Shown: positions 1,190 to 33,810, numbered from the stretch's first letter. The stretch: DNA of 33,810 bases from Acidobacteriota bacterium (GCA_028749105.1 JAQUQF010000002.1:1-33810); one strand, 5' to 3'. Notes: generated by a model from the sequence alone, not told the origin. Numbers and translations: made by a program.

Positions 1190-1273
1190 AACCCGCTGCT
1201 TGGATCGAGGCAGTACCGCTGCGATAAGAAATAAAGCAAGCTTTTATTCGCGGCCATGAGACGCTGCGCTTCC

Positions 1274-1302
1274 TTGACATTCCCGACATATTCCAGTTAA
1301 AT
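1274..1302 (+). promoter_or_regulatory. Sigma70-like promoter upstream of the radical SAM gene
   Basis: TTGACA (1274-1279), 17-nt spacer, TTAAAT (1297-1302). Confidence 0.35.
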
Positions 1303-1433
1303 ACCAATTGCGCATAGGAGTAAAAAGCCTGCATTGGATCATCATGTCACGTGAAGAGAGGATCAAGATTCGATCGTCGTTCACTCTGTGTTTCGGGTTA
1401 AAAACCAACCCGGGCAACCCATAAGAGGGGGAA

Positions 1434-5094: not shown

Positions 5095-6234
5095 CTATAC
5101 CGATTTCAAAAACTTCTTGAAAATTCTTTTCCTTTTGTGCTGGACGGGATTGAAATACTTCCACTGCGCCTGGATCTTGTTGTTGGTTTCCAGCTCCTGG
5201 TTGCTCTCGGTGAAGCGGAAACCTTTGGCCACTGCCGCACGCGCAATATTCACCACCATCAGCAGGTCAACCCCCATGCCGCGGTACGACTTTTTGATGC
5301 CGGCCAGATAGAAGTCCAGGACGTCGTTGTTCTTAAAGGCGCGCAGCAAATGCCACCAACCCAGGGGGAATAGGCGGCCGTTGGCTTTTTGGAAAGCAAG
5401 GGAGAGGCTGGGCATGGCGATCATGAAGCCGATCATCTCGTCCTTTTCATTGACCACGGCCTGGATCAGGTCCTTGTCCACAAACGAAAAATATTTCTTT
5501 ATGTAATACTGGATCTGCCTTTCGGTCAGGGGGACGGAGCCGTAGATCTCGTCGAAGGCCTCGTCCAGGAGGTGGAACAGCTCCACCGCACGGCCAAGGA
5601 TATCCTTTTTCTTCTCGAACTTGATCAGGCGCAGATTGCCGCGCTCCAGGATGCGGTCGGCCAGGCGCAGCAGCTTCTCGGGAAAAGCCGACATCTCTTT
5701 GGGCACCTGGGCGCGGAATTCAACATAGTCGATCTCCTTGACATAGCCGAGGCCCTCCACCAGTTTCTGGTAGTAGGGGAAATTGTAGTAGCCGGCGATC
5801 GTCGGCAGCTGATCGAAACCTTCGACCAGCATGCCCTGGGGGTCAAGGTCGCAGAAGCCGTGGGGGCCGGAGAGCGTTTCCAGGCCCAATTCCCTTGCCC
5901 ACCCCTCGACGGCCTGAAACAGAGCGGCGGCGACCTCGGGGTTGTTGATGCTGTCGAACCAGCCGAAGCGCAGGTTCTTCGTGCCGTATTTTTCGTTGGC
6001 GGCGCGGTTGTGAATGGCGGCGATGCGGCCGACGGGCCGGCCGTCCTGATAGGCCAAAAAGAGCCGCGAATCGGAGTAATCGAAGGCCGGGTTCTTCTCC
6101 CTGTCGAAGATCTCCATATCGTCGCGGATGAGCTGGGGGACCCACATGGGGTCGTCCTTATAAAGGGTGAAGGGAAGCGTTACAAATGTTTTAAGATATT
6201 TTTTATCCAGTACTTCCTTGATAGACACGGCCAT
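5095..6234 (-). CDS. GNAT-superfamily N-acyltransferase-like protein (~380 aa two-lobed type)
   Basis: The N-terminal region LPFTLYKDDPMWVPQL..DREKNPAF and RPVGRIAAI.. resembles conserved GNAT-like proteins. A C-terminal acyl-CoA-binding-like stretch is YLAGIKKSYRGMGVDLLM. Confidence 0.65.
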   Translation of the reverse strand: MAVSIKEVLDKKYLKTFVTLPFTLYKDDPMWVPQLIRDDMEIFDREKNPAFDYSDSRLFLAYQDGRPVGRIAAIHNRAANEKYGTKNLRFGWFDSINNPEVAAALFQAVEGWARELGLETLSGPHGFCDLDPQGMLVEGFDQLPTIAGYYNFPYYQKLVEGLGYVKEIDYVEFRAQVPKEMSAFPEKLLRLADRILERGNLRLIKFEKKKDILGRAVELFHLLDEAFDEIYGSVPLTERQIQYYIKKYFSFVDKDLIQAVVNEKDEMIGFMIAMPSLSLAFQKANGRLFPLGWWHLLRAFKNNDVLDFYLAGIKKSYRGMGVDLLMVVNIARAAVAKGFRFTESNQELETNNKIQAQWKYFNPVQHKRKRIFKKFLKSV

Positions 6235-10398: not shown

Positions 10399-11148
10399 TT
10401 ACAATACGGAATTCAGCCCTATCTCACGCGCCAACGAACTTACGAGCGCCGTTGCGCTCCCCTGCAGGAAGACGTCGGCGATGGGGGTGAAATTGGACTC
10501 GTGGAGATTGATTTCGATCAGCCTGGCGCCTCTGGCCTTGGCCAAAGGCGGCACCTGGCAGGCGGGCTGCACCTCGCCGCTGGAGCCGATGACCAGGAAG
10601 AGGTCGGCCTGCGAAGCCTCCTGGTAGGAGCGCTGCAGCGCTTTTTCCGGGATGCCCTCGCCGAAAAAGATGAAGTCGGGCTTGAGCAGTCCCCCGCAGG
10701 CGGAGCAATACGGGGGAAGCGAGGCCAGGCGCTCCGCCAGCGCCGCCTCGCGCCTGCCGCAGCCAAGACAGACCAGCCAGCGCGAGTTGCCGTGAAACTC
10801 GATCACCTCGCGACCGCCGGCCTCCTGGTGCAGGCCGTCGATGTTCTGGGTGATGACGGCCCGGACCCGTCCCGCCTTTTCCATGGCGGCAATGCCGAAA
10901 TGGGCGGCGTTGGGCTGCGCCTTGCCGAAAAAATCGTAGAATATTTCCTTGATCTTCAGCCAGCTCTCGCGGGGTTCGGCCCGGAAACGATCGATCTCCA
11001 TGAAAGCGGGGTCGATTTGGCTCCACAGACCGCCCGGCCCGCGGAAAGGCGGGATGCCGCTCTCGACCGAGATGCCGGCACCGGTGAAAACGGTTGCATG
11101 GCGGGCTTCCCGCAGCAGGAGCGCCGCCTGTGCCATCGCCTGCGGCAT
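10399..11148 (-). CDS. cobB: NAD-dependent protein deacylase (sirtuin, CobB type)
   Basis: FTGAGISVESGIPPFRG, TQNIDGLH, a Zn ribbon (CLGCG...CSACGG) and a catalytic His in EFHGN. Confidence 0.9.
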   Translation of the reverse strand: MPQAMAQAALLLREARHATVFTGAGISVESGIPPFRGPGGLWSQIDPAFMEIDRFRAEPRESWLKIKEIFYDFFGKAQPNAAHFGIAAMEKAGRVRAVITQNIDGLHQEAGGREVIEFHGNSRWLVCLGCGRREAALAERLASLPPYCSACGGLLKPDFIFFGEGIPEKALQRSYQEASQADLFLVIGSSGEVQPACQVPPLAKARGARLIEINLHESNFTPIADVFLQGSATALVSSLAREIGLNSVL

Positions 11149-11150
11149 GC

Positions 11151-12485
11151 CTATTCCTTGAAGATGTGGCCGAAGCGATACGTCAGGGCGAGCATGAAGA
11201 CGTTGGCGCGGAAATGGGTATTCACATCTGGGCTGACCGGGAAGTAGCCGTTCTCCAGCCAGTTGGCGTGCTGCCGCTGGAACGTGATCTCCAGCAGCAG
11301 GTTGCGCGAGAATTCGCTGCCAATGCCGCAGGAATAGCCATGAACCTGGACAACCTTGTCAACGTAAGCGGCGTAGAGCTGGCGGTCGAGCGACCAGCCG
11401 CCGCGCACGCTCAGTTTCCATGAGCGGAAGGGAATGCGGGCCTCGGCGCCAAACCGCAGATTGCGGACCTGCTTCTGCCCTGTGCTCCAGGCGTCCTTCT
11501 GCGGGTACGGGAGTACGGAGGAGCCATAATAGTCCTCGATGCTGCCGTTTTCCCATTCGATACGCGAATAGTCGGCACTCACGTCAAGCCAGGCGGCCGG
11601 CCGCAGCAGGAGGCCGAGAGAGAATTGCTCCGGGATCACCACCCGGGCCTGGCTGGTCGTCTCCTCCTTGTTGATCTTGGCGCCATTGTCATCCACCCCC
11701 CAGTCCAGCAGAACGGAGTCGAGCCGGCTTTGCAGGCCGCTGTGCCAGGAGGCGCCCAGGCGTAGCCAGTCAAACGGCGAAAAGAGGGCGCCGAGGATGA
11801 CATTGCGTCCGTATATTTTTTCGGTGAGCTGGCTGAAATACTCGCCGGTCGTGACATCCCCCACCCGCTCCACCCGAACGAAGGAGAGGGCGCCGGATCC
11901 AAAGAACTGCTGCATGGTGGCGCCCACCGAGAAATAATCGGTCGCCGCGGCCGCCAGTGAAAAGGCGAGCACGTCAAAGCCCTCGCTGCCGGTGAAGGTC
12001 ACAGTCGTCTCAAGCGGGTCGAACCAGTCATAAAGGGAGGGCACCACCTCCCGGGCCTTCCCCTTGAAGCCGTAGGGGATGTAGCGATAGTAGCTCAAGG
12101 CGAAGGTGCATGGCCGCTGCAGCGCGGAAAAGGGGGCCGAAATGGCGAAAAAATCGATCTGGTTCAGCTTGCTGGCGAAGTTGAAATTGTAGAAGCGGTA
12201 CTCCTCTGCCGCCAGGGCGTTGTCCTGCAGGTCGTAGTCGTGCCATTGCCAGGAGGCCTTGTAACCCAGGTAGAACTCGGGAGTACGCAGGTTGGCCAGT
12301 CCGGCCGGGTTCCAGAAGGAGGCGGTCAGGTCGTCGGCCACGGCGGTGAAGGCGTTGCCCATGGAGAGGGCCTTGACGCCATGGGCGAAATTATAGTAGT
12401 TGTACCAGGGTTTGTACCGGGAAAATACCAGAACCGGCAGCGCCAGCAGCAGGAGCAGCAGCAGGACCCGGAGGCGTATTTTCAT
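11151..12485 (-). CDS. Outer-membrane beta-barrel protein (FadL/PorV-like)
   Basis: Signal peptide MKIRLRVLLLLLLLALPVLVF, the motif SMGNAFTAVADDLTASFWNPAGLA, and alternating aromatic beta-strand patterns to the C-terminus. Confidence 0.6.
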   Translation of the reverse strand: MKIRLRVLLLLLLLALPVLVFSRYKPWYNYYNFAHGVKALSMGNAFTAVADDLTASFWNPAGLANLRTPEFYLGYKASWQWHDYDLQDNALAAEEYRFYNFNFASKLNQIDFFAISAPFSALQRPCTFALSYYRYIPYGFKGKAREVVPSLYDWFDPLETTVTFTGSEGFDVLAFSLAAAATDYFSVGATMQQFFGSGALSFVRVERVGDVTTGEYFSQLTEKIYGRNVILGALFSPFDWLRLGASWHSGLQSRLDSVLLDWGVDDNGAKINKEETTSQARVVIPEQFSLGLLLRPAAWLDVSADYSRIEWENGSIEDYYGSSVLPYPQKDAWSTGQKQVRNLRFGAEARIPFRSWKLSVRGGWSLDRQLYAAYVDKVVQVHGYSCGIGSEFSRNLLLEITFQRQHANWLENGYFPVSPDVNTHFRANVFMLALTYRFGHIFKE

Positions 12486-12513
12486 ATCAGGTTCCTAAAA
12501 TCCCCTCGTAAAA

Positions 12514-12678
12514 CTAAAATTCCAAATCCCAAGCACCAAATTCCAAATAAATTCCAAGTTCCAAATTCCAATGACCCAACCGAAAGCCATTTCCAGCATC
12601 TTTTCTTTTTTGGTCATTGGGACATTGGTGCTTGGTGCTTGTTTGGAATTTGGTGCTTGGAACTTGGTGCTTGATTCC
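12514..12678. repeat. CCAA-heptamer inverted-repeat element, copy A
   Basis: The left arm has CCAA at 12522, 12529, 12536, 12543, 12554, 12561 and 12568 (7-nt phase with one 11-nt jump). The right arm mirrors this with TTGG. The apex stem pairs 12568-12576 (ccaatgacc) with 12612-12620 (ggtcattgg). Long identical blocks are shared with copies B and C. Confidence 0.85.
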
Positions 12679-12705
12679 TACCCGATCGCCCACCTGATAC
12701 TTCAA

Positions 12706-13422
12706 TCATTTCTTATCTTCGGCCAGGTCCTCTTCCTCGTCGTAGCCCACGCGCTCGCCCGGGTCCTCGATGACCACGCGGCCGCCGACCGTCTCCTCGT
12801 AGGAGAGGCAGCACATCAAGCGGCCGCACATGCCCGAGATCTTGACCGGGTTCATGTTCAGGTTCTGCTTCTTGGCCATCTGCAGGGTGATGGGCTCCAG
12901 GTTGCTCAGGAAGGTTTTGCAGCAGAGCTGGCGGCCGCAGATGCCCACGCCGCCGATCATCTTGGCCTCGTCGCGGATGCCGATCTGGCGCATTTCGATG
13001 CGCATGCGGAACTTCCTGGCCAGGTCCTTGACCAGGTCGCGGAAGTCGATGCGCCCCTCCGAGGTGAAATAGAAGATGGCCTTTTTCTCGCTGGTATAAA
13101 AAGTCACGCGCACCAGCTTGATGGGGATCTCACGCTCGCGGATGCGGTTCTGGCAATACTCGTAGGCGCGCCGTTCCTCGCGCTCCTTGCGGGCGAAGCT
13201 CTCGATATCGCGGTCGTCGGCCCGGCGCAGGATCGCGGGGATGTGCGGGACCCCCCTGGTGCAGCTGAAGAGCTCGCCGAAATGCCTGACCACCCGGCCC
13301 AGCTCCTCGCCGGTGATCGACTGGATGATGACGCAGTCGTCGGGCTTGATGTCCTCCTCGACGGTGCGGAAGTGGAGCAGGTCGCGGCGGTTCTCGATCT
13401 TGACCAGGATGACCTTATCCAT
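12706..13422 (-). CDS. PSP1 domain protein (RicT/YaaT family)
   Basis: PSP1 C-terminal region with a Cys-rich GICGRQLCC...GMCGRLMCC. It overlaps holB by 8 nt, the classical holB-yaaT arrangement. Confidence 0.85.
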   Translation of the reverse strand: MDKVILVKIENRRDLLHFRTVEEDIKPDDCVIIQSITGEELGRVVRHFGELFSCTRGVPHIPAILRRADDRDIESFARKEREERRAYEYCQNRIREREIPIKLVRVTFYTSEKKAIFYFTSEGRIDFRDLVKDLARKFRMRIEMRQIGIRDEAKMIGGVGICGRQLCCKTFLSNLEPITLQMAKKQNLNMNPVKISGMCGRLMCCLSYEETVGGRVVIEDPGERVGYDEEEDLAEDKK

Positions 13423-17797: not shown

Positions 17798-17826
17798 TTG
17801 ACTACGTCGCTGAAATGTCATAAAGT
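17798..17826 (+). promoter_or_regulatory. Sigma70-like promoter for iorA
   Basis: TTGACT (17798-17803), 17-nt spacer, TAAAGT (17821-17826). GAGGAGG (17843-17849) precedes ATG 17855. Confidence 0.35.
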
Positions 17827-17854
17827 TAATCTTATAACAGAACGAGGAGGTCCT

Positions 17855-19666
17855 ATGGCCAAAGAACTTCTATCGGGCAACGAAGCCATCGCCCGCGGCG
17901 CCTGGGAGGCGGGGGTCACCTTCGCCGCCGCCTACCCCGGCACGCCCAGCACCGAGATCCTGGAGAACATCATCCGCTACAAGGACGACATCTACTCCCA
18001 GTGGGGGACGAACGAGAAGACGGCCATGGAGGAGGCCCTCGGGGCCAGCTTCACCGGCGCCCGCGCCCTGGTGACCATGAAGCACGTGGGCTTGAACGTC
18101 GCAGCCGACCCGCTGTTCTCTGCCAGCTATATCGGCGCCACCGGCGCCCTGGTGATCGTCTCGGCCGACGACCCCGGCATGCACAGCTCGCAGAACGAGC
18201 AGGACAACCGCCACTACGCCGTGGCCGCCAAGATGCCGGTGCTCGAGCCCTCCGACTCCCAGGAAGCCAAGGACATGGTCCTGGAGGCGGTGAAGATCAG
18301 CGAGGCCTACGACACGCCGGTTATGATCCGCATGACCACCCGCACGTCGCACTCGCGCTCGGCGGTTGAATTGGGCGAGCGGCATGTGCCGCCCGTGCCC
18401 GAGTACAAGAGCGACTTCCTCAAGCGCAACCTGCTGCCGGGAAACGCCCGCAAGCGCCACGCCGCCGTCGAGGAGCGCCTGAAGAAACTGGCCGTGTTCA
18501 GCGACAGTTTTGCCTACAACACCATGATCAAGGGCAGGGAGCGGGTCGGCGTCCTCGCCTCCGGCGTCTCCTACCAGTACGGCCGCGAGGTCTTCCCCGA
18601 CGCTTGGTTCCTGAAGCTGGCCATGCCCTACCCCTTCCCGATCAAGCTGTTCCAGCGCTTCGCATCCATGGTCGACAAGATCTACGTTTTGGAGGAGAAC
18701 GATCCGATCATCGAGACTTTCGCCCGCCTGGCGGCCCCGCAGAAGGAGATCGTCGGCAAGGACGTCTTCCCGCTGCTGGGAGAGTTGTCGCAGGACGTGG
18801 TCCGCGCCAGCCTGGGGCTGAAGGACATGGCCCCACGACACTCCGCGGACGGAGTTCCGGGTCGCCCCCCCTCCTTGTGCGCGGGCTGCCCGCACACCGC
18901 TTTCTTCTACAACCTGGGGATACTGAAGGTGCAATCCAAGGGCGACATCGGCTGCTATACCCTGGGGGCGCTGCGGCCGCTGAGCGCCATGGACACCTGC
19001 GTCGACATGGGAGCGAGCATCACGGTGCAATTGGGCATTGAGAAGGCCCTGGAAAAGGCGGGCAAAACGACCAAGCAGGTCGCCGTGATCGGCGATTCCA
19101 CCTTCTTCCATTCCGGCATCACCGGCCTGATCGACGTCATTTACAACCAGGGCAAGTCGACGATCGTCATCCTGGACAATTCGATCACGGCCATGACCGG
19201 CCACCAGGAGAACCCGGGCTCGGGCCGGACCCTGATGGGCCAGCCGGTCCGGCAGATCGACATCGTCAAGCTGGTGCGCGACGGCCTGGGCCTGGAGCAC
19301 ACCTACGAGGTCGACGGCTACGAGGTCAAGGCCATCCGCGAGCTGCTGAAGCGCGAGATGGCCCGGGAGGAGCCCTCGGTGATCGTCGTGCGCCGACCAT
19401 GCGTGCTGCTCTACCGCAAGGCCAAGTGGTCGCCCATGGTCGTGGACAAGTCCACATGCACCAGCTGCAAGACCTGCCTGCGCCTGGGCTGCCCGGCCAT
19501 CAGCACCGACGTCGACGGCAAGTCGCTGATCAACGTCTCCCTGTGCACCGGCTGCGGCGTTTGCGCCCAGGTCTGCCCCTACAAGGCCATCTCCTACGCT
19601 GACGAAAAAGGGATGCACATCGGCTCCATGACTCTGGAATCGTTCGCCAAGGGAGGCGGCAAATGA
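17855..19666 (+). CDS. iorA: Indolepyruvate:ferredoxin oxidoreductase alpha subunit
   Basis: 2-oxoacid:Fd oxidoreductase TPP-binding architecture (GDSTFFHSG). C-terminal 2x[4Fe-4S] motifs are CTSCKTCLRLGCP and CTGCGVCAQVCP. Start trimmed to the ATG with a strong SD. Confidence 0.9.
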   Translation: MAKELLSGNEAIARGAWEAGVTFAAAYPGTPSTEILENIIRYKDDIYSQWGTNEKTAMEEALGASFTGARALVTMKHVGLNVAADPLFSASYIGATGALVIVSADDPGMHSSQNEQDNRHYAVAAKMPVLEPSDSQEAKDMVLEAVKISEAYDTPVMIRMTTRTSHSRSAVELGERHVPPVPEYKSDFLKRNLLPGNARKRHAAVEERLKKLAVFSDSFAYNTMIKGRERVGVLASGVSYQYGREVFPDAWFLKLAMPYPFPIKLFQRFASMVDKIYVLEENDPIIETFARLAAPQKEIVGKDVFPLLGELSQDVVRASLGLKDMAPRHSADGVPGRPPSLCAGCPHTAFFYNLGILKVQSKGDIGCYTLGALRPLSAMDTCVDMGASITVQLGIEKALEKAGKTTKQVAVIGDSTFFHSGITGLIDVIYNQGKSTIVILDNSITAMTGHQENPGSGRTLMGQPVRQIDIVKLVRDGLGLEHTYEVDGYEVKAIRELLKREMAREEPSVIVVRRPCVLLYRKAKWSPMVVDKSTCTSCKTCLRLGCPAISTDVDGKSLINVSLCTGCGVCAQVCPYKAISYADEKGMHIGSMTLESFAKGGGK

Positions 19667-20247
19667 CTACAAAATCGATCCTGATCTGCGGTGTCGGCGG
19701 CCAAGGCATTCTGACCGCCAGCGACCTGCTCTCCGACGTGCTGCTGCAGGCCGGCTACCAGGTGAAGAAGAGCGAGGTGCACGGCATGAGCCAGCGCGGC
19801 GGCGACGTGATCTCCACGGTGCGCTACGGGGACCAGGTCTTTTCGCCCCTGCCCGCCCTCAAGGAGACCGACTACATCCTGGCCTTCGAGAAGCTCGAAG
19901 CCCTGCGCAACATCAACTACCTGGGCGAGAAGGGCATCGTCCTGGTCAACGATTTCGAGTGGCAGCCTCTGACCGTGGCGGCGGGCTATGAAAAATACCC
20001 CGCGGATGTGGTGCCGCGGCTGAAAAAACTGGCCGGCGAGCTTGTGCTCATCCCGGCGACGCGCCTGGCCGCCGAGCTCGGCAACGACAAGGCCTCCAAC
20101 GTCGTGCTGATCGGCCTGCTGGCCTCGCGCATGGATATCGACGAGAAGGTCTGGCTGGAGGTCGTCCGCCGCAAGGTGCCGCCGCGCTTCCTGGACTTGA
20201 ACCTGAAGGCCTTCGATGCCGGATACCGCTTCAAGGCCGGGGCCTGA
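19663..20247 (+). CDS. iorB: Indolepyruvate:ferredoxin oxidoreductase beta subunit
   Basis: Gamma-domain-like ILICGVGGQGILTASDLL...HGMSQRGG. ATGA overlap with iorA. Confidence 0.85.
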   Translation: MTTKSILICGVGGQGILTASDLLSDVLLQAGYQVKKSEVHGMSQRGGDVISTVRYGDQVFSPLPALKETDYILAFEKLEALRNINYLGEKGIVLVNDFEWQPLTVAAGYEKYPADVVPRLKKLAGELVLIPATRLAAELGNDKASNVVLIGLLASRMDIDEKVWLEVVRRKVPPRFLDLNLKAFDAGYRFKAGA

Positions 20248-20263
20248 GGCCGGGGAGAACGCC

Positions 20264-21166
20264 ATGATCCAGAACCTGAAACAGCTCGTGCAAGCCGCCA
20301 AGAAGCGAAAGGGCATCATCGCCGGAGTCCCCTGCCCCGAGGACGAAAGCACCATCCTCTCGGTCATCGAGGCCAAGAAGGAGGGTTTGGCTGACTTCGT
20401 CCTCTGTGGCGATCGGGCCAAGATTTCCCAGCTGCTCCGCCAGCTCGGCGGCGACGAGTCCGACTTCGAGGTCCACGACACCCCCGGGGCCGAGACGGCG
20501 GTAGCGCGGGTGGTGGAGCTGGGCCGCCTGGGGAAGCTGCACCTGGTCCTGAAGGGCTTCCTGCCCACGGCGGCGCTGATGAAGCCCATCCTGGACAAGG
20601 AAAAGGGGTTGCGCGGCGAGAACCTGCTCTCCGACATCCTGGTGCTGGAGAACCCGGCCTGCGAGGAGCTGCTGGGCATGAGCGACGGGGGGCTGAACAT
20701 TCTACCCGACCTCGCCCAGAAGAAGCAGATCGTGGAGAACGCCGTCGCCGTGTTCCACGGCCTGGGCTATGAGGAGCCGCGGGTGGGGATCATGGCCGCC
20801 ATCGAGGCGGTCAAGGACTCCATGCCGGCCACCCTCGATGCCAGGTCCCTGACCGAGATGAACGGACGCGGGGAGATCGCGGACTGCCAGGTCTACGGGC
20901 CGCTGGCTCTGGACATCGCCGTCTCGCGCGAAGCGGCCGAGCACAAGGGCATTTTCAACGATGTCGCCGGCCGGGCGCAGATCATGATCGTTCCCAACAT
21001 CGAGGCGGGCAATCTGCTGGGCAAGGCCTTCACCTACTACCTGAAGCTCACCGTGGCCCACGTGGTCATGGGCGCCCGCCTGCCGATCCTCATCCCCTCG
21101 CGCAACGAGAGCGACACCGACAAGTTCCATTCCCTGGCCCTGGGCGTGCTCAGCGCCCGGCCCTGA
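20264..21166 (+). CDS. ptb: Phosphate butyryl/acetyltransferase-family phosphotransacylase
   Basis: PTA_PTB fold: start MIQNLKQLVQAAKKRKGIIAGVPCPED, then GGLNILPD and VPNIEAGNLLGK. Confidence 0.8.
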   Translation: MIQNLKQLVQAAKKRKGIIAGVPCPEDESTILSVIEAKKEGLADFVLCGDRAKISQLLRQLGGDESDFEVHDTPGAETAVARVVELGRLGKLHLVLKGFLPTAALMKPILDKEKGLRGENLLSDILVLENPACEELLGMSDGGLNILPDLAQKKQIVENAVAVFHGLGYEEPRVGIMAAIEAVKDSMPATLDARSLTEMNGRGEIADCQVYGPLALDIAVSREAAEHKGIFNDVAGRAQIMIVPNIEAGNLLGKAFTYYLKLTVAHVVMGARLPILIPSRNESDTDKFHSLALGVLSARP

Positions 21167-26736: not shown

Positions 26737-27141
26737 CTAGCGCTTGTGATACTGGGGCGCCTTTCGCGCTTTGAGCAGGCCGTACTTGCGGCGCTCTTTT
26801 TCGCGGGCATCCCGGGTCAATAAACCCGATTTCTTTAAGGCGGGCCTGAGTTCCGAGTTGAATTCAAGCAGGGCGCGCGCGATCCCCAAGCGGACCGCTC
26901 CGGCCTGGGAGGCGACGCTGCCACCCTCGATATCCATAAAAAAATCAAAGTTGTTCAACGTGTTGGTGATGGTCAACGGCTTGAAGATGGTGAGCTTGTG
27001 TATCTTCAAGGGGAAATAATCCTCGAACACGCGGTTGCGCTTGTTGACGGTCAGGGTAAAATTGCCGTTGCCGGGGCGAAGGTACACCCGGGCGATGCTG
27101 GTCTTACGTCTTCCGGTTCCGTAGTATTGAACAATGCTCAA
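26737..27141 (-). CDS. rpsI: 30S ribosomal protein S9
   Basis: YYGTGRRKTSIARVYL...GGSVASQAGAVRLGIARAL...TRDAREKERRKYGLLKARKAPQYHKR. Confidence 0.95.
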   Translation of the reverse strand: MSIVQYYGTGRRKTSIARVYLRPGNGNFTLTVNKRNRVFEDYFPLKIHKLTIFKPLTITNTLNNFDFFMDIEGGSVASQAGAVRLGIARALLEFNSELRPALKKSGLLTRDAREKERRKYGLLKARKAPQYHKR

Positions 27142-27599
27142 CTTTTCCCTCCTGTTATTTTAAGCACTTCGGGCTTCTGGGCGGCATGGCCGTGGCTGGC
27201 GTCCGGGTAGACCTTCAGCTTGGTCAGCAACTTGTAGCTCAACTTGTTCTTGGGCAGCATGCCCTTGACGGCGTTCAGGACCACGCGCTCGGGGTGCGTG
27301 GCCATCATGCGCTGGAAGGAGGTCTCCTTGATGCCGCCGCGGTATCCCGAATGGCGATAATAGAGCTTTTGCTCCTCCTTGCTTCCGGTCAGGCGGATCT
27401 TGCGGGCGTTGATGACCACGACATGGTCGCCGCAGTCGAAGAACGGAGTATAGCAGGGGTGGTCCTTGCCGCGTAAAACATCGGAAACCCTGGTGGCGAG
27501 GCGCCCAAGCACCAGGTCGCTGGCGTCGATCAGCCACCACTTCTTCTCCATGCCGTTTTTTTTGGGCAAATACGTGACATTGCTCTTGTTCAATTTCAT
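27138..27599 (-). CDS. rplM: 50S ribosomal protein L13
   Basis: KKWWLIDASDLVLGRLAT.VSDVLRGK..P.YTP..DCGDHVVVINA is canonical L13. ATGA overlap with rpsI. Confidence 0.95.
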   Translation of the reverse strand: MKLNKSNVTYLPKKNGMEKKWWLIDASDLVLGRLATRVSDVLRGKDHPCYTPFFDCGDHVVVINARKIRLTGSKEEQKLYYRHSGYRGGIKETSFQRMMATHPERVVLNAVKGMLPKNKLSYKLLTKLKVYPDASHGHAAQKPEVLKITGGKS

Positions 27600-27624
27600 T
27601 TTTCAACCTCGTTGGGAAGAGTTC

Positions 27625-27653
27625 AATCTATAATATTTTAGCCTATTTGTCAA
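27625..27653 (-). promoter_or_regulatory. Sigma70-like promoter for the rplM-led operon
   Basis: On the minus strand: TTGACA (27653-27648), 17-nt spacer, TAGATT (27630-27625). Confidence 0.4.
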
Positions 27654-27795
27654 GGTTTTTTGCGAAAAAATCTCGCTGACGGGGATTTTCGACCTTGGGA
27701 AGTCCGCGTCCGACAAAGGAAAGCGCCCGACAACGGCGGGGTGTAATTCCGTCGAACTATTGCGTTGGCTGACAAAATTTGTTATATTGTCATCC

Positions 27796-28074
27796 ATGAG
27801 ATTGAATAAACAGCAGATCGAGCACTTGGCCTTCCGCGTGATCAAAGGTCTGCTGGCGGAAAATCTTCTCATATCGGACAACCGGGAAAAAACCGTCATC
27901 GACGTGCAGAATATCATTACCCAGGAGCTGGAAAAAGAGGACCAGCTCGATGAAAGGGTCAAGGACATCCTGAAGGACAAGCTGAACGAGATCCGCAACT
28001 CGAACATCGATTACTACGAGATGTTCCGCATGGTCAAGAGCAAGCTGGCCGAACAGGAAAACATAATATTATGA
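27796..28074 (+). CDS. DUF507-family small protein
   Basis: MRLNKQQIEHLAFRVIKGLL...; helical, acidic. Start trimmed to ATG 27796. Confidence 0.6.
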   Translation: MRLNKQQIEHLAFRVIKGLLAENLLISDNREKTVIDVQNIITQELEKEDQLDERVKDILKDKLNEIRNSNIDYYEMFRMVKSKLAEQENIIL

Positions 28075-28361
28075 GCTTGAAACTGTCAAAGAACCGGGTG
28101 AACTACCTGACCAAGCTGATCGTGGACTACATCCAGAAGAGCGAGGACATCGATTACCTGGACGATCTGGGCAATATCCGCTTCAAAATTTACCATATCA
28201 TCCTGGACGAGCTCAAGCTGTTCGAGGACATCGAAACCGCCTCCCAGGAAAAGATCGTTTCCCAGAAGAAGAACATCCCCGAGGGCTCGCGCGAATGGGA
28301 GATCCTCTTCCGCAAGTACAGCAACGAGGAGCTGGCCAAACTCGGCCGCGTTTGGGACTAA
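28071..28361 (+). CDS. DUF507-family small protein (paralog)
   Basis: LSKNRVNYLTKLIVDYIQ... ATGA overlap with the upstream paralog. Confidence 0.6.
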   Translation: MSLKLSKNRVNYLTKLIVDYIQKSEDIDYLDDLGNIRFKIYHIILDELKLFEDIETASQEKIVSQKKNIPEGSREWEILFRKYSNEELAKLGRVWD

Positions 28362-28399
28362 TTCAAACTCAAAAAAAAGACTCGGCGTTCTGTATCTCG

Positions 28400-29068
28400 A
28401 TGAAAAACAAATCAAAGCAGGCTCTTCATGACCTCGGCGCCATTCGCCGGTTCATCGCTCCCCTCTCGCCGCCGGTCTTTGCCTTCGAGGCCAGCATCCG
28501 CTCCTCGCCGTTCCGCATCCTCATCTCGGTGCTGCTGAGCGCGCGCACGCAGGACCCGGTGACCGAAAAGGCGGCCGCCCGGCTGTTCGCTGTTGCCGAT
28601 ACGCCTGGGAAGATGGCGTGCCTGTCCGAGGCGCGGATCAGCCGCCTGATCTACCCGGTCGGATTCTTCCATACCAAGGCCAAGCACATCCTGAAGATTT
28701 GCCAGGCCCTGGAACAGGGCGGGCCGTTTCCCTCCAGCCGCGATGAGCTGCTGAAGCTGCCAGGGATCGGCCGCAAGTCGGCCAACCTGGTCATGGCCCT
28801 GGCCTTTTCCCGTCCGGCCATCGCCGTCGACACCCACGTCTTCCGCATCTCGCGCCGCCTGGGCTGGGCTTCGGGACGTGTGCCCGGCGACGTGGAAAAG
28901 GAACTGGAGCGCCTCTTTCCCCGCCGCCGCTGGACTGACGTCAACCAGGTGCTGGTCGGCTTCGGCCAGACGATATGCCGGCCTGTCCGCCCCTTGTGCG
29001 CCGCCTGCGTGCTCCACCTCAGATGCCCATCCTCATCCGTGCCGCACCGAGAAGAACAGCCTCGCTGA
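28400..29068 (+). CDS. nth: Endonuclease III (HhH-GPD DNA glycosylase with [4Fe-4S])
   Basis: HhH LPGIGRKSANLV, catalytic-region VDTHVFRISRRLG, and Fe-S loop CRPVRPLCAACVLHLRC. Start trimmed to ATG 28400. Confidence 0.9.
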   Translation: MKNKSKQALHDLGAIRRFIAPLSPPVFAFEASIRSSPFRILISVLLSARTQDPVTEKAAARLFAVADTPGKMACLSEARISRLIYPVGFFHTKAKHILKICQALEQGGPFPSSRDELLKLPGIGRKSANLVMALAFSRPAIAVDTHVFRISRRLGWASGRVPGDVEKELERLFPRRRWTDVNQVLVGFGQTICRPVRPLCAACVLHLRCPSSSVPHREEQPR

Positions 29069-29081
29069 AATCCGTTTATTG

Positions 29082-29852
29082 TTACTTTTTTTCGGCCAGG
29101 ATCCTTGCCAATTCTTCGACAATGAGCTTCCTTATCAGCTCGCTGGATTGGATTGGATCCAGGGCGGTTTCGCTGCCGGAATCTTTTGTTGAAGCAGATC
29201 TTCTTGCTGGATCCAGCCCCAATGAAGCGCGCTTTTCCAGCAATTTTGCCTTGTCCGCCGCGGGCAGGGGGAGCCAGGGGCCCATGTTCCTGGCATAGTG
29301 ATCGATCCGCAGCAGGTGCTCCAGCAATTCCATGCGCAGGAAAGCCTCCTTGACGTCACGTCCGGCAGCCAGGACTCCGTTGCCGGCCATCATCAGAAGA
29401 TCACCCTTGCCCAATGCCTCCGCAGTCAGCACCTCATTTTCATGAGCGCCAGGGAACGCATAGGGGATGACCGGAATGGAACCGCCGATGGAAACCACCG
29501 CTTCGGGGAGCCGCACGTTGAAATCACCGCCGGCCAGGCCCCTGGCCGTGGCCAGGGGCGGATGGGCATGAACCACGGCCTGGACATCGGGCCGGGCACG
29601 GTAGGCCGCCAGGTGCAGCCGGATCTCCGAGAACGGATTGCCTGAACCCTGAAGCTTGTTGCCCTCCATGTCCAGGGTGATGATCATGTCCGCGGTCACG
29701 TCGGCCTTGCTGACCGCGGTGGGCGTGGACAGCAGTATGCCTTCAAGGCGCGCCGTGACATTGCCGTCGTGGTTGGCCACCCAGCCCTTGGCCGCCACTT
29801 GATGGCAAATTCCAACGATGGCGCCAATCAGCGATTCGCGACGACTTTCCAT
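29082..29852 (-). CDS. Class II (fuculose/rhamnulose-phosphate-type) aldolase with C-terminal encapsulation-peptide-like tail
   Basis: Aldolase_II motifs NHDGNVTAR and VVHAHPPLATA. A low-complexity linker is followed by the amphipathic SSELIRKLIVEELARILAEKK. Confidence 0.85.
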   Translation of the reverse strand: MESRRESLIGAIVGICHQVAAKGWVANHDGNVTARLEGILLSTPTAVSKADVTADMIITLDMEGNKLQGSGNPFSEIRLHLAAYRARPDVQAVVHAHPPLATARGLAGGDFNVRLPEAVVSIGGSIPVIPYAFPGAHENEVLTAEALGKGDLLMMAGNGVLAAGRDVKEAFLRMELLEHLLRIDHYARNMGPWLPLPAADKAKLLEKRASLGLDPARRSASTKDSGSETALDPIQSSELIRKLIVEELARILAEKK

Positions 29853-29866
29853 TGCCGGATTGATCG

Positions 29867-30520
29867 TCAGTCCAGCTGCTTCCCGGACCTTGAACGCTTC
29901 ATCTCGTTCAGCTGCCGGAGGATCCTTGCCGCCGCCTCGGCCGCCGAATCGATCTCCGACTCGCCGCCACTGAGGACCAAACGGCCGCTGGCGCCAAAGG
30001 GCTTGATGTCGATCAGCTTGACATCGGCGGCCTTCAGTGCTTCATTGCAGGCGACCATCAGATAGGCGGCCGGGGTGACCTCCATGATAAAAACCGATTC
30101 GCCGGCAATGACCATGTTGCCCTTGGCCAGGCCGGTGAACATGATGGCGTGATCCTGCTCGATGCCGCGGATGGTTTTCTGGGTCAGGATTTCCACGGCG
30201 ACCCTGTCGTTCTCGTCCAGGGCGGTTTCGCGCAGGATGGCCCTGCCCGCTTCCTTGATCTCGCCCTGATCGCTGTGGTGCGCCAGCATCAGCCCGAACT
30301 GGCGCTCGGTGACCACGGAAGTCAGCCGCACGGCGGTCGCTTTCAGGGCAATATCGATCATGGTGTGGATCTCCATGGCCGGAGCGATCTCGATCATCAG
30401 GGCCGCATCGTATTCCTTGGGGTCATAGACACGGTTGTCCTTGGCGATGTATTGCGCCAACTGGGGCTGCAGGCTATCAATGAAAGTCAACGTCCTCAAT
30501 TCAAAACCCGATTTTGCCAT
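29867..30520 (-). CDS. BMC shell protein, tandem permuted BMC-T (EutL/PduB-like)
   Basis: 217 aa with two BMC-like halves. The C-terminal half, VTPAAYLMVACNEALKAADVKLIDIKP..SGRLVLSGGESEIDSAAEAA, resembles EutL. Confidence 0.7.
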   Translation of the reverse strand: MAKSGFELRTLTFIDSLQPQLAQYIAKDNRVYDPKEYDAALMIEIAPAMEIHTMIDIALKATAVRLTSVVTERQFGLMLAHHSDQGEIKEAGRAILRETALDENDRVAVEILTQKTIRGIEQDHAIMFTGLAKGNMVIAGESVFIMEVTPAAYLMVACNEALKAADVKLIDIKPFGASGRLVLSGGESEIDSAAEAAARILRQLNEMKRSRSGKQLD

Positions 30521-30531
30521 GCCATCCTCCT

Positions 30532-31464
30532 TTAATACGTTCCCTTTTTTGCATCCTGGCCGGTCACGATGGCCACGCTGGCGGATGCGCCGATGCGGTC
30601 GGCCCCGGCCTGTATCATTTTTTGCGCGTCCTCGCGGGTGCGTATGCCGCCAGAGGCTTTCACCTCCATGTCAGAACCCACGATGCGGCGCATCAACACG
30701 ATGTCTTCCACAGTGGCTCCGCCGCCGCCGAACCCGGTCGACGTCTTCACAAAAGCGGCGCCGGCAGTCTTGGCCAGGGCACAGGAGATCACTTTTTCCT
30801 CATCATTCAGCTGCGCGGTCTCAAGGATCACCTTCACTTTGTGGGGCTTTGAGGCTTCCACGACGGTTTTAATGTCTTCGAAAACAGTTCGATAATCCTT
30901 GGATTTCAGGGCTCCGATGTTGATCACCATGTCGATCTCCTCGGCCCCGGCGTGGATGGCTTCCCTGGCCTCAAAAGCCTTGGCCTGACTGGTGGCAGCG
31001 CCCAGAGGGAATCCCACCACGGCGATGGGTTTGACTGCACTCCCCAGCAGCTGCCTGGCCACCAGGGGGATATTGGCCGAGTTGACGCAAACGGTGGCGA
31101 AGCTGTACTGCTTGGCCTCTTCGCATATCTTCATAAGCTGCTCACGGGTGGCATCCGGCTTCAGCAGGGTGTGATCGATCATGGCCGCCATTTTGGCATC
31201 GATCGTCACGCCTAGGATGCCGCTTTTTGAGCTGATCCGTTCCGCCCCGCTTTGAATGATATTCTTTACCGCTTCGGGCTTGCGGGTAACGCAGTGGCCG
31301 CAGCCGCTGCACTCCTCACAGGGAACATCACCAGGAAGATTCTGGATTTTCTCAGTTAAAAGTCCTTTCTGCATCAACCGTTCAGTCACCCGCCTGCTGA
31401 TGATTTCAACCACCTCATCCAGGTTTTCCAATCCTTGTTGAGCCATTGGTCCCTCTCCTGCCAA
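30532..31464 (-). CDS. deoC: Deoxyribose-phosphate aldolase (DERA) with ~85 aa N-terminal extension
   Basis: DERA core: IDHTLLKPDAT, VCVN, Schiff-base region VKVILET and FVKTSTGF, plus VKASGGIR. The extension carries LDEVVEIISRRVTERLMQ and CEECSGCGHC. Confidence 0.9.
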   Translation of the reverse strand: MAGEGPMAQQGLENLDEVVEIISRRVTERLMQKGLLTEKIQNLPGDVPCEECSGCGHCVTRKPEAVKNIIQSGAERISSKSGILGVTIDAKMAAMIDHTLLKPDATREQLMKICEEAKQYSFATVCVNSANIPLVARQLLGSAVKPIAVVGFPLGAATSQAKAFEAREAIHAGAEEIDMVINIGALKSKDYRTVFEDIKTVVEASKPHKVKVILETAQLNDEEKVISCALAKTAGAAFVKTSTGFGGGGATVEDIVLMRRIVGSDMEVKASGGIRTREDAQKMIQAGADRIGASASVAIVTGQDAKKGTY

Positions 31465-31466
31465 TC

Positions 31467-31754
31467 CTAATTCTTTTCCGGTTCCCGGTCAACGGAAACC
31501 TTGTCCACGATGCCGACGATGACCGAATGAAAGGGATCGCTGCGCGTTCCCAGCAATTCGCGAGCCGTATTGCCTTCCTGCTGCACCAAGACCAGGTCGC
31601 CAGGACCGGCGTTGACCGTATCGCAGGACAAAAACGCGTGGGCGGTGTCTTCACCGTTTTCATCGACCGGTTGGACGATCAGAAGCTTATGCCCTTTGTG
31701 ACTGCCATGTTTCCTGGTCGCCACCACGTTGCCGATCACCCTGGCCAGTTTCAT
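31467..31754 (-). CDS. BMC vertex protein (BMC-P, EutN/CcmL family)
   Basis: MKLARVIGNVVATRKH...LLIVQPVD...AVDTV-type pattern. Confidence 0.85.
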   Translation of the reverse strand: MKLARVIGNVVATRKHGSHKGHKLLIVQPVDENGEDTAHAFLSCDTVNAGPGDLVLVQQEGNTARELLGTRSDPFHSVIVGIVDKVSVDREPEKN

Positions 31755-31767
31755 ATCAACGCTCCAT

Positions 31768-32079
31768 TCAGCGGTTTTTTACAAAGATCCGCTTTTTGCC
31801 GACGATTCCTTTGTCCTCAAGATTCACCTGGTCCACAATCCCGGTGATGGCCGCGTCGACCGGTGAGTTCGGGTCGGGCAGGGAAAAGGGGGCCTCCCGG
31901 GGGAGGGTATAATAGACGACCTCGCCGGGGCCGGCCTGGACGACATCCACGGCGGCGATCGCCCCGCCCACCGGTCGCATCGACTCATCCAGCGGCTGGA
32001 TCATCAGGATTTTCAAATTCTGCAATTTCTCGCTTTTTTTTGTTGCGACTACGGTCCCAATCACTTTGGCCAGCTTCAC
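31768..32079 (-). CDS. BMC vertex protein (BMC-P, EutN/CcmL family), second paralog
   Basis: MKLAKVIGTVVATKK...ILMIQPLD...IAAVDVVQAGPGEVV. Confidence 0.85.
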   Translation of the reverse strand: MKLAKVIGTVVATKKSEKLQNLKILMIQPLDESMRPVGGAIAAVDVVQAGPGEVVYYTLPREAPFSLPDPNSPVDAAITGIVDQVNLEDKGIVGKKRIFVKNR

Positions 32080-32117
32080 CGTTCACTCCTTCGCCAGTTT
32101 TCTTTTCTCATTTCATG

Positions 32118-32675
32118 TCACCAATAGATGCCTTTGGCCAGCAGATCCTTGTGCGGCGCAGGGATCAATTCGCAGGCGGCCAACATCCCTGCCTGGGCGG
32201 CAAATTCCTTTGCCGCGGCCAGCGCCCCTTCGACATCGGCCAATTCCCCGGTCATGACGAAATATCCCTTGCCGCCAAGTCCGTTGGCCAGCCTTATTTC
32301 AACCAACTGGACGGGAGTAGCCTTGACGGCGATATCGGCGGCCTGCAGGCAGGTGGCCGCGGCGAAGGTCTCCACGATGCCCAGGCTGCCGAATTTCTCG
32401 ATCCTGGCGGTCCCGGCCAGGGCCGGGATCACGTCGCGGTGCACGAAGGGGAGGAACAAATCGGCCACCACCATATCATGCCCTGTCTCCAGTCCGATCT
32501 TCATGGCTTCTTCTACTTCCGCCACGTCGCCGCAGATGATCGTGAGGTACTTGCCGGGGCAGACCGGATGGGTTTCGAGAATGCGCACCGCCGCCTTCTT
32601 CACCATGGCATCACAGGAATAGATGCCCCGGGCCACCGATTTGTATTCGATCATTCCCAGACACGGTTCATTCAT
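32118..32675 (-). CDS. BMC shell protein, tandem BMC-T (PduT-like)
   Basis: Two BMC domains: LGMIEYKSVARGIYSCDAMVKKA and LGIVETFAAATCLQAADIAVKA. Cys39 sits in HPVCPGKY, at the position of the PduT pore Fe-S ligand. Confidence 0.8.
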   Translation of the reverse strand: MNEPCLGMIEYKSVARGIYSCDAMVKKAAVRILETHPVCPGKYLTIICGDVAEVEEAMKIGLETGHDMVVADLFLPFVHRDVIPALAGTARIEKFGSLGIVETFAAATCLQAADIAVKATPVQLVEIRLANGLGGKGYFVMTGELADVEGALAAAKEFAAQAGMLAACELIPAPHKDLLAKGIYW

Positions 32676-32687
32676 GGTCTTTTCCCT

Positions 32688-33810
32688 TTATCTTCGGCAG
32701 ATTTCTATCCAGTCCGCGTTCACTTCGGTCACCATGCCGGCGATCGAGGCATGGCAAACGGCTCCCAGCTTGTCAGCCGGCGGCGCGGCGATGACATCAC
32801 CCATTTTGACTTTTTCACCCTTTTTCACGGCAGGAGTGGCAGCGGCACCGGCATGGCGGCGCAAGGGGACACGCACACGCTTCGCTTCGTGATATCCGGC
32901 AAACGGCGCTTCCACGGCATATTCGGAAATGCCCGCTTTTTTCAATACCGTCGCAACGGGAATTCTGCGGTAGGCGATTTCAGGATGCACGGCAAGCGCC
33001 GTTCGTGTATGGGGATTCTTGATGCCGCGGGCAATCAGCAGCCTTTTGTATTCGGCTAGCACCCGGCGGGGAGAAAGGAGCATGGCGTCGCAGGCCAGGA
33101 GTTCGCACACGCCGCATTGGCTGCACAAAAAAGCGGAAGTGACGTGCCCGGCCGGTTCGGACAAGCCATAATCGAGCGAGCGCATGGTGAGGTGCGGATG
33201 CAGGTCATGTCCCAGAAGGCTGCGCGGGCAAAGGTCCGTACAGCGGAAACATTGGCAGCAGGAGGCCTTTGACTTTTTCACCATCTGGGTCACGCTCGTT
33301 TGTTTCAGCCGCACGATGAAATGGTCGGCAGGCAAAGCCACGATCCCGGAAGTGGTCCTGGCTATTCCCAGGCCGGGATCATCGATCAGGTTGCCCATCA
33401 TGGGACCGCCGTCGATCAGCACATCGCCGGGCTGGCTGGTCCCGCCGGCTTCTGCGAGCAGGTCGGCATACGGTGTTCCGATGGGCGCCACCAGCACGAC
33501 AGGACTGCGCACCGAACCGGAGACGGTGACCGGCCTTTCGGTCACCGGCTTGCCACCAAGGGCACCGGCCACCTGGGAGAGCGTAAGCACGTTGCAGACC
33601 ACGACACCGACATCAAGGGGCAGGCCCCCCTCGGGAATCACCCTGCCGGTGCAATCGAAAACAGTCAGGAATTCATCGCCCACGGGGTAATAGTCTTCCA
33701 AAAGGTGAATTTTGATGGTTCCGTCGCCGGGAAGCGCTTTCCGGACCGCGGCGACCACATCGTGATAACGGCCTTTGACCGCAATGACTCCCTGCCGGGC
33801 TCCGCAAGCT
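32688..33810 (-). CDS. PduS/RnfC-like Fe-S flavoprotein (N-terminus lies outside the window)
   Basis: SLBB-like region, GGPMMG, two 4Fe-4S motifs (CCQCFRCTDLCP, CSQCGVCELLAC) and a C-terminal barrel-sandwich-hybrid-like KKGEKVKMGDVIA. The frame stays open past GTG 33758 to the window edge. Confidence 0.75.
   Translation of the reverse strand, partial: ACGARQGVIAVKGRYHDVVAAVRKALPGDGTIKIHLLEDYYPVGDEFLTVFDCTGRVIPEGGLPLDVGVVVCNVLTLSQVAGALGGKPVTERPVTVSGSVRSPVVLVAPIGTPYADLLAEAGGTSQPGDVLIDGGPMMGNLIDDPGLGIARTTSGIVALPADHFIVRLKQTSVTQMVKKSKASCCQCFRCTDLCPRSLLGHDLHPHLTMRSLDYGLSEPAGHVTSAFLCSQCGVCELLACDAMLLSPRRVLAEYKRLLIARGIKNPHTRTALAVHPEIAYRRIPVATVLKKAGISEYAVEAPFAGYHEAKRVRVPLRRHAGAAATPAVKKGEKVKMGDVIAAPPADKLGAVCHASIAGMVTEVNADWIEICRR

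Follow-up and report, generated by a model that had tools for sequence, protein, structure and literature searches.

What kind of organelle is encoded where two different aldolase genes sit among genes for bacterial microcompartment (BMC) shell proteins, at the very end of a contig? The question is raised by a 33,810-nucleotide stretch of Acidobacteriota DNA (GCA_028749105.1, JAQUQF010000002.1:1-33810; hereafter, the window, meaning this whole stretch), in which a BMC locus begins at position 29082 and continues to the last base. We think it quite likely that the locus encodes a catabolic BMC of the sugar-phosphate-utilizing (SPU) family and that, judged from its genes and their order, it lies closest to subtype SPU5. 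Sequence similarity places the host among the uncultured Aminicenantes, within the Acidobacteriota: the 90%-identity clusters that contain the window's ribosomal protein S9 and its PduT-type shell protein (BMC-TSE) include proteins named Candidatus Aminicenantes, and named homologs of both aldolases are labeled Candidatus Aminicenantes, Acidobacteria, or plain "bacterium." The locus represents a BMC type that is already catalogued, found here in an Aminicenantes host.

The operon and its type

Protein families were called with Pfam at gathering thresholds and with NCBIfam at model cut-offs. The open reading frame (ORF) listing for positions 27000 to 33810 contains seven closely packed ORFs, all on the minus strand, from 29082 to the window end. 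These are the seven codirectional genes named in an earlier annotation of this DNA (the original prediction); all of them pass Pfam gathering thresholds in the families given there, and the BMC-domain calls hold in both the Pfam and the NCBIfam profile searches. The same annotation had described the locus as truncated by the window edge. Indeed, the PduS-like gene is incomplete and loses its N-terminus at the contig end. The window is one entire contig of 33,810 bp, so the truncation is an end of the assembly.

An exact-protein look-up with the PduT-like protein led to four other contigs. One of these (L001; GCA_035915475.1) overlaps the window by 3,806 bp at 99.6% identity and reaches 6.7 kb further. 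Upstream of the PduS-like gene, and on the same strand, it carries genes for a 489-amino-acid (aa) aldehyde dehydrogenase (AldDH), a third BMC-P, and a 101-aa BMC-H. A BMC-H and an aldehyde dehydrogenase had been expected beyond position 33810, and both lie directly upstream on this contig; the BMC-H is also present in the related loci L085 to L089, and the full-length PduS-like protein (445 aa) occurs on L001, L003, and L085. The features of the locus, with those on L001 listed last, are as follows.

29082-29852, minus strand: class II aldolase (FucA/RhaD family, PF00596), 256 aa; Pfam Aldolase_II, 136.6 bits
29085-29144, minus strand: putative C-terminal encapsulation peptide of the aldolase, aa 237-256, SSELIRKLIVEELARILAEKK; helix motif conserved after a poorly conserved linker
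29867-30520, minus strand: BMC-Tdp shell protein, 217 aa; Pfam BMC, 45.5 bits, with a CsoS1D_N domain recorded for the same protein
30532-31446, minus strand: 2-deoxyribose-5-phosphate aldolase (DERA), 304 aa; Pfam DeoC; NCBIfam TIGR00126 (deoC), 271.5 bits against a cut-off of 117.3
31291-31320, minus strand: Cys-rich segment of the DERA extension, C43-x2-C46-x2-C49-G-x-C52 (aa 43-52), from the homolog alignment
31369-31431, minus strand: amphipathic helix of the DERA extension (aa 6-26), putative N-terminal encapsulation peptide, from AlphaFold2 and homolog conservation
31467-31754, minus strand: BMC-P pentamer (vertex) protein, 95 aa, one of three paralogs; EutN_CcmL (PF03319), 90.1 bits
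31768-32079, minus strand: BMC-P pentamer (vertex) protein, 103 aa, one of three paralogs; EutN_CcmL (PF03319), 86.8 bits
32118-32675, minus strand: PduT-type BMC-TS (BMC-TSE), 185 aa; two BMC domains, 131 bits
32688-33810, minus strand: PduS-like flavoprotein (metabolosome NADH dehydrogenase, MNdh), C-terminal 373 of 445 codons; Pfam Complex1_51K, SLBB, Fer4_17, and RnfC_N
L001 4265-4570, same strand as the BMC genes: BMC-H, 101 aa; KAAK and PRPH motifs
L001 4955-6424, same strand as the BMC genes: acylating AldDH, 489 aa; 447 bits to the solved CoA-acylating AldDH 5jfl

Based on these contigs, we conclude that the sequence describes a ten-gene operon, of which the window holds the 3' seven genes. 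Read 5' to 3' on the minus strand, the order is BMC-H, BMC-P, acylating AldDH, MNdh, BMC-TSE, BMC-P, BMC-P, DERA, BMC-Tdp, and class II aldolase. Three components expected of a BMC locus are present: the BMC-H on L001, two BMC-P in the window and the third on L001, and an acylating AldDH whose catalytic Cys motif (DNNIICVVEKE) aligns with that of 5jfl (DNNLPCVAEKE). The view that this is a metabolosome-type locus with two aldolases as apparent cargo was borne out.

Two published definitions bear on membership in the SPU family. According to Dwyer et al. 2024, DERA and AldDH are the common denominators of SPU loci, and a shell locus with both enzymes qualifies; here, the catalytic motifs and a BMC-specific N-terminal extension are present. 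The main-text definition of Sutter et al. 2021 asks for an RpiB-type isomerase (PF02502), and none was found among the ten genes or in the 10-kb flanks of L001, L085, L086, and L089. For subtype SPU5 specifically, Sutter et al. 2021 (Supplementary Data 2) report an AldDH that is always present and carries an N-terminal encapsulation peptide (EP), whereas pfam02502 is absent. Half of the loci have pfam01791, half have a BMC-Tdp, and about half have a pfam00596 aldolase whose EP is C-terminal. The remaining shell proteins are a BMC-P triplet, a single standard BMC-H, and a PduS-associated BMC-TS with a pore cysteine. Dwyer et al. 2024 likewise describe ribose phosphate isomerase (RPI) as completely absent in SPU5. 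The Aminicenantes operon agrees with this description on every point. Its AldDH and DERA have N-terminal extensions, its PF00596 aldolase has a C-terminal one, and RpiB and PduL are lacking; its shell set comprises three BMC-P, one standard BMC-H, a BMC-TS with pore Cys beside the PduS homolog, and the BMC-Tdp that is optional in SPU5. The original prediction had placed the locus in the PVM-like/SPU classes. The SPU part of that placement stands, and the PVM-like part does not, given one BMC-H against three BMC-P, the PduS/PduT pair, and the lack of DeoR in the locus and its flanks.

Comparison of related loci suggested how much of the operon is fixed. The closest relatives, L085 (DERA 93% identical) and L086/87 (90%), have the identical ten-gene order and identical flanks, and L089 (73%) has the ten genes in order in another genomic context, with a triose-phosphate isomerase gene after the aldolase (12510-13277, plus strand). 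At L088 (69%), the cassette stops at DERA, and the BMC-Tdp and aldolase are missing (10918-12043). A metagenome-assembled genome (MAG) labeled "Pseudomonadota" (L005) carries nine genes in unchanged order, from BMC-H through BMC-Tdp, at 55 to 86% identity, without the aldolase (11653-11895). This was the only strongly similar locus among the 80 genome loci listed by a genome-contig scan with the DERA alignment, in which the best match was 63% identical and no close Aminicenantes genome was among the matches listed. The cassette is a module with a variable 3' end (BMC-Tdp, aldolase, and triose-phosphate isomerase), and DERA, AldDH, and the PduS/PduT pair are constant. Both enzymes have many relatives: at least 120 distinct 90%-identity clusters resemble the window DERA (68 to 100% identity), and at least 120 resemble the window aldolase (54 to 98% identity).

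Enzymes, shell proteins, and their extensions

DERA is the signature enzyme of SPU BMCs (Sutter et al. 2021; Dwyer et al. 2024). The catalytic barrel of the window copy (aa 85-302) scores 248 bits to the solved DERA 6d33, with the EIDMV, KVIxET, and FVKTSTGF motifs common to both, and the motifs of the catalytic Asp and two Lys are invariant in 59 homologs. We also considered a TTG at 31464 as the start codon, which would give 310 aa; an exact look-up of that form found nothing, and homologs support the ATG at 31446 (304 aa).

Terminal extensions had been claimed for both aldolases, and both have them: about 84 residues at the N-terminus of DERA and about 50 at the C-terminus of the class II aldolase. 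The DERA residues precede the part that can be aligned to solved DERAs, and they are kept in homologs as a helix followed by a variable linker. AlphaFold2 places a helix at aa 7-26 with low pLDDT, and its conserved residues are D10, V13, I16, V20, and L24. This helix matches the published description of SPU DERAs (Dwyer et al. 2024). The putative EPs were also compared by hydrophobic moment with shuffled sequences for all three extensions, and the strongest amphipathic signal came from the N-terminal helix of AldDH (DQIKQIVDRVVENLA; P = 0.02 versus shuffles).

Between helix and barrel, the DERA extension contains a Cys-rich segment in which C46, C49, G50, and C52 are invariant in the 59 homologs, followed by a conserved PEAVxNIxxSGAxRIG segment that reaches down to ~31200. 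The AlphaFold2 model, built from the 59-sequence alignment, is confident for the barrel; the extension has a pLDDT of 33 to 58, too low to place the cysteines. When four DERA extensions were scanned against Pfam at E values of up to 10, only chance-level matches came back. For a wider view, we surveyed 81 DERA genes from species-representative genomes (L005 to L084, among the matches listed). Where shell genes lay within 10 kb, 35 of 40 DERA genes, from many phyla, had a GAxR motif preceded by at least two Cys; 30 of these 35 had at least three Cys. Among the genes with no nearby shell genes, 16 of 41 were without both the GAxR and the Cys features. Housekeeping DERAs do not have the module. 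The module thus takes the form of three or four Cys, with a spacing that varies by lineage, and then GAxR[ILV]. Dwyer et al. 2024 describe this part of DERA only as two low-confidence beta strands and use the word "cysteine" only for RPI. We regard the Cys-rich module, as seen in these alignments, as a lead rather than a result.

Turning to the shell, the 217-aa BMC-T had been taken for an EutL/PduB-like protein. That identity was rejected based on low scores with the EutL and PduB models (~20 bits, against 175 bits for NCBIfam CcmP, itself below its cut-off) and on solved relatives of the double-stacking type (7dhq, 173 bits; HO-5816, 169; CcmP, 149; CsoS1D, 147). Instead, the sequence identifies it as a tandem permuted BMC-domain protein of the double-stacking CcmP/CsoS1D/HO-5816 type, and the conserved Glu-Arg pair of the gated pore is present (TERQFG). 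The BMC-H has KAAK and PRPH interface motifs of the standard kind, read straight from the sequence. Its nearest solved relative is the Haliangium ochraceum hexamer HO-5815 (152 bits), ahead of PduA (122 bits).

The BMC-TSE has the pore motif C39-P-G-K (32550-32561), in register with the solved PduT structures 3nwg and 3pac, and scores 126 bits with NCBIfam TIGR02526, below the cut-off. In PduT, the CPGK pore cysteine ligates a [4Fe-4S] cluster, and the CP(G/S)K motif is universally conserved in BMC-TS genes adjoining PduS homologs (Sutter et al. 2024). Here, too, the BMC-TSE gene adjoins that of the PduS homolog, which Sutter et al. 2024 renamed MNdh. The domain order of the latter is Complex1_51K, SLBB, two [4Fe-4S] domains, and a C-terminal RnfC_N, a permutation that is the published MNdh architecture. 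Recycling of NAD+ by the MNdh/BMC-TSE pair has bioinformatic, electron paramagnetic resonance, voltammetry, and footprinting support, and 361 loci have the pair without an alcohol dehydrogenase (Sutter et al. 2024).

These shell relationships bring up the alternative that the locus is a variant of the type II BMC of H. ochraceum (HO), in which DERA usually lies at a satellite site. Supporting this idea, the closest solved relatives of both the BMC-H and the BMC-Tdp are HO proteins, the SPU5 AldDH has its nearest relative in the published AldDH of HO, and HO loci combine a BMC-P triplet with a single BMC-H and, in some cases, a PF00596 aldolase. In addition, Myxococcales MAGs contain DERA genes with the same kind of extension that sit away from shell genes. 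On the other hand, the HO BMC-TS has no pore cysteine, and PduS/T is found in only three HO genomes, at satellite sites, whereas here MNdh and BMC-TSE lie in the operon. HO loci also have two BMC-Tdp where this one has one, and DERA here is inside the operon. We therefore consider an HO variant distinctly improbable. The distinction between SPU5 and HO is partly one of nomenclature, because the two are described as close relatives.

The second enzyme is harder to name. The best solved relatives of the class II aldolase are L-fuculose-1-phosphate aldolases (FucA), and its metal-site residues are Glu76, His95, His97, and Asn158 (29379-29381). This Glu-His-His-Asn set is invariant in the 120 best aldolase homologs. 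At 50% clustering, Glu-His-His-Asn occurs in 30 of 150 representatives and Glu-His-His-His in 115, and members of both groups often end in EP-like helices; the aldolase homologs in L014 and L057 keep the His. Because Asn is conserved across a subclade, the alignments identify the His-to-Asn change as a subclade feature and not as decay. A FucA identity was rejected, as Asn occupies the position of His155 and the scores fall below the equivalog cut-offs. Candidate substrates are presumably ketose-1-phosphates that release lactaldehyde, glycolaldehyde, or acetaldehyde, all of which we take to be possible. The ~50 residues that follow the FucA-like fold form a variable linker and then a conserved terminal helix. 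A C-terminal EP is part of the published description of SPU5 aldolases (Dwyer et al. 2024; Sutter et al. 2021, Supplementary Data 2).

This enzyme is central to a second alternative, a PVM or PVM-like metabolosome for fucose or rhamnose. In such an organelle, the role of signature enzyme would fall to the class II aldolase, which would release lactaldehyde from fuculose- or rhamnulose-1-phosphate, and DERA would be an accessory. The PF00596 aldolase with its EP-like tail and FucA relatives fits this scheme. So does the AldDH, which resembles the solved AldDH 4c3s (439 bits), an enzyme that we take to be from a fucose/rhamnose BMC. PVM loci have PduL, acetate kinase, an Ldh/Mdh-like dehydrogenase, and DeoR (Sutter et al. 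2021), but none of these was found in the locus or the 10-kb flanks of L001, L085, L086, and L089. In most published PVM-like loci, H proteins outnumber P proteins; DeoR is usually present in these loci and PduS/PduT is lacking, whereas this locus has one H and three P and an MNdh beside BMC-TSE. Moreover, the aldolase is dispensable, being absent in L005 and L088, whereas DERA is always present, and the aldolase reaches no FucA or RhaD equivalog cut-off. Taken together, these observations make a PVM or PVM-like organelle very unlikely.

Proposed mechanism and the points against it

If the locus is an SPU5-like BMC, published work on its families suggests the following course. The terminal extensions would target DERA, AldDH, and the aldolase into a shell of one hexamer, two trimer types, and three pentamer paralogs. 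2-Deoxyribose-5-phosphate, probably from DNA breakdown, would enter, perhaps via the gated BMC-Tdp pore, and DERA would split it into glyceraldehyde-3-phosphate, which would leave, and acetaldehyde, which would be retained. DERA activity has been demonstrated for an SPU6 enzyme (Dwyer et al. 2024). The FucA-like aldolase may split a ketose-1-phosphate into dihydroxyacetone phosphate (DHAP) and a second aldehyde. AldDH would oxidize the aldehyde or aldehydes to acyl-CoA (acetyl-CoA from acetaldehyde), with reduction of NAD+ to NADH. MNdh would then reoxidize the NADH, and electrons would pass through its FMN and its two Fe-S clusters into the [4Fe-4S] cluster of the BMC-TSE pore and from there to a cytosolic acceptor; since no alcohol dehydrogenase is encoded, this pair would be the means of regenerating NAD+.

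The original prediction had expected a PduL beyond position 33810. None turned up: PduL, alcohol dehydrogenase, RpiB, a kinase, and DeoR are all lacking upstream on L001, PduL is lacking in the 10-kb flanks of the orthologous loci as well, and PF06130 (PTAC) has no match in the locus, its flanks, or the window. As no PduL is encoded, acyl-CoA would leave the shell, or CoA would be recycled by some other route. The statement that substrate and physiology are "essentially unknown" in this lineage was too strong, in that the SPU type, DERA activity, the extensions, and NAD+ recycling by PduS/PduT were all published between 2021 and 2024.

Several points weigh against the SPU5 assignment and the scheme built on it. 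The assignment draws on gene content and synteny rather than on classification hidden Markov models or trees, and the three upstream genes come from a near-identical contig of another assembly rather than from the window's own contig. Published SPU5 BMC-Tdp proteins fall in the CsoS1D clade, and here the CcmP and CsoS1D scores are near equal (149 and 147 bits). The aldolase reaches no NCBIfam equivalog cut-off, the best FucA models giving 67 to 81 bits against cut-offs of 250 to 400; it keeps Glu73, His92, and His94 of FucA, and Asn158 takes the place of the third zinc ligand, His155. Judged from these residues and scores, its substrate, its metal, and even its activity are uncertain. As for targeting, the hydrophobic-moment test was not significant for the aldolase tail and was borderline for the DERA helix (hydrophobic moment of 0.63, reached by 5.8% of shuffles; P = 0.06). 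Phosphopentomutase, nucleoside phosphorylase, and deoxyribokinase genes, whose products would supply the organelle, were not seen in the window. Finally, every flux step above extrapolates from published work on the protein families.

An extension of the scheme would combine the two unusual features of the enzymes. The organelle may be a dual-aldolase compartment for "nucleic-acid sugars," with unorthodox chemistry in both signature enzymes, in which the Glu-His-His-Asn aldolase acts on a substrate other than fuculose- or rhamnulose-1-phosphate (such as ribulose-1-phosphate or 5-deoxyribulose-1-phosphate) and the DERA Cys module forms a metal or Fe-S site. The module could then sense redox state or be wired to the MNdh/BMC-TSE electron path. 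We regard this combination as unlikely. If it were true, SPU DERAs would use their "encapsulation" extension in a second way as well, for regulation or redox, which the SPU papers cited here do not mention.

The remaining alternative reverses the direction of flux, with DERA and a DHAP-dependent aldolase trapping toxic aldehydes made elsewhere into sugar phosphates. Such an aldehyde-condensing function has reportedly been proposed for Atribacteria BMCs, and both aldolase reactions are reversible. Dwyer et al. 2024 also consider a class II aldolase acting synthetically within SPU BMCs. Against it, the operon always pairs DERA with an acylating AldDH and the NADH-oxidizing MNdh/BMC-TSE module; this pairing makes sense only if aldehyde is oxidized inside the shell, and we therefore judge the condensing direction to be highly improbable. 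The ACI class was rejected as well, as it has a hydroxyacid dehydrogenase and a satellite AldDH.

Neighboring genes, significance, and known systems

The surroundings of the operon were examined on both sides. In the window, 3' of the aldolase gene, lie an endonuclease-III-like gene and two DUF507 genes, followed by rplM-rpsI-rpsB-tsf-pyrH-frr. Upstream, L001 continues with a gene fusion that involves LpxC, two genes for small membrane proteins, and a sensor/regulator pair of the NtrC type. The fusion, a response-regulator receiver domain joined to a full LpxC domain (257 bits), lies directly upstream of BMC-H (L001 2796-4130, plus strand); it recurs at L085 (2494-3828) and L086 (3723-5072) and stands beside the BMC operon in these close relatives, not in L089, L088, or L005. 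Genes for a histidine kinase and a sigma-54-dependent (NtrC-type) response regulator occur near the cassette at L001 (2-1680), L086 (1-2459), and L005 (11895-14416, minus strand). Because such regulators are found near the cassette in both Aminicenantes and L005, we searched four loci for a sigma-54 promoter in the region upstream of BMC-H; no site with a GG/GC core had fewer than six mismatches. The only promoter match was a sigma-70-like consensus (TTGCAA-17-TAGAAT) 55 nucleotides upstream of the BMC-H start codon.

Elsewhere in the window, a three-gene operon (17798-21166, plus strand) encodes an IorA-like 2-oxoacid:ferredoxin oxidoreductase (622 aa), an IorB-like subunit (194 aa), and a PF01515 protein (316 aa). 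The last, a phosphate acetyl/butyryl-transferase, is the sole phosphotransacylase near the BMC locus, 8 kb away, and nothing ties it to the BMC. Further off (482-3808, plus strand), consecutive genes encode a methyltransferase, a radical SAM protein that binds B12, and a SAF-domain synthase of the NeuB family (sialic/nonulosonic acid), and are probably a sugar-modification cluster. These genes are followed by a 374-aa ORF without a Pfam match (3875-4999, minus strand), whose G+C content of ~38% compares with 50 to 65% around it and which may be foreign DNA, and by an adjoining 379-aa ORF without a significant Pfam match (5095-6234).

Anoxic sediments and the subsurface harbor abundant Aminicenantes, none of which is known to us in culture. 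Their physiology gains a concrete handle from an SPU-type organelle that is conserved and complete, with likely roles in scavenging deoxyribose from DNA and in handling the resulting acetaldehyde. The locus also extends the rare SPU5 subtype, of which eight loci had been catalogued, to another phylum. In a ten-gene cassette without alcohol dehydrogenase and PduL, the MNdh/BMC-TSE route would be the sole encoded means of NAD+ recycling, which therefore makes the cassette a clean test case for the MNdh/BMC-TSE electron-export model. The general picture of BMCs is unchanged by these findings, and only the aldolase Asn and the DERA Cys module could lead somewhere new.

Compared with known systems, the operon resembles PVM and PVM-like loci in combining BMC genes with an acylating AldDH and a PF00596 aldolase, but neither of these types has been described with DERA. 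With the BMC of H. ochraceum and other Myxococcota it shares, besides the shell relationships above, an AldDH with an N-terminal EP. SPU6 from Chloroflexi (Dwyer et al. 2024) likewise has DERA as its signature enzyme, with an N-terminal extension made up of a helix plus an extra segment. However, SPU6 has an RPI partner, lacks MNdh/BMC-TSE, and has an AldDH with a C-terminal EP from another branch of the AldDH family; SPU6 AldDHs score ~150 bits against that of the window lineage, versus 640 bits for the L005 AldDH. SPU5 is the closest match. One difference is that both aldolases and the BMC-Tdp occur together here, whereas each is found in about half of the published SPU5 loci. The 2021 SPU5 hosts were eight Proteobacteria and one Chloroflexi (Sutter et al. 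2021), and Aminicenantes did not appear in the searchable supplementary files of that study or in a full-text literature search. In type, then, this operon resembles those SPU5 loci, and it differs from them in its host lineage.

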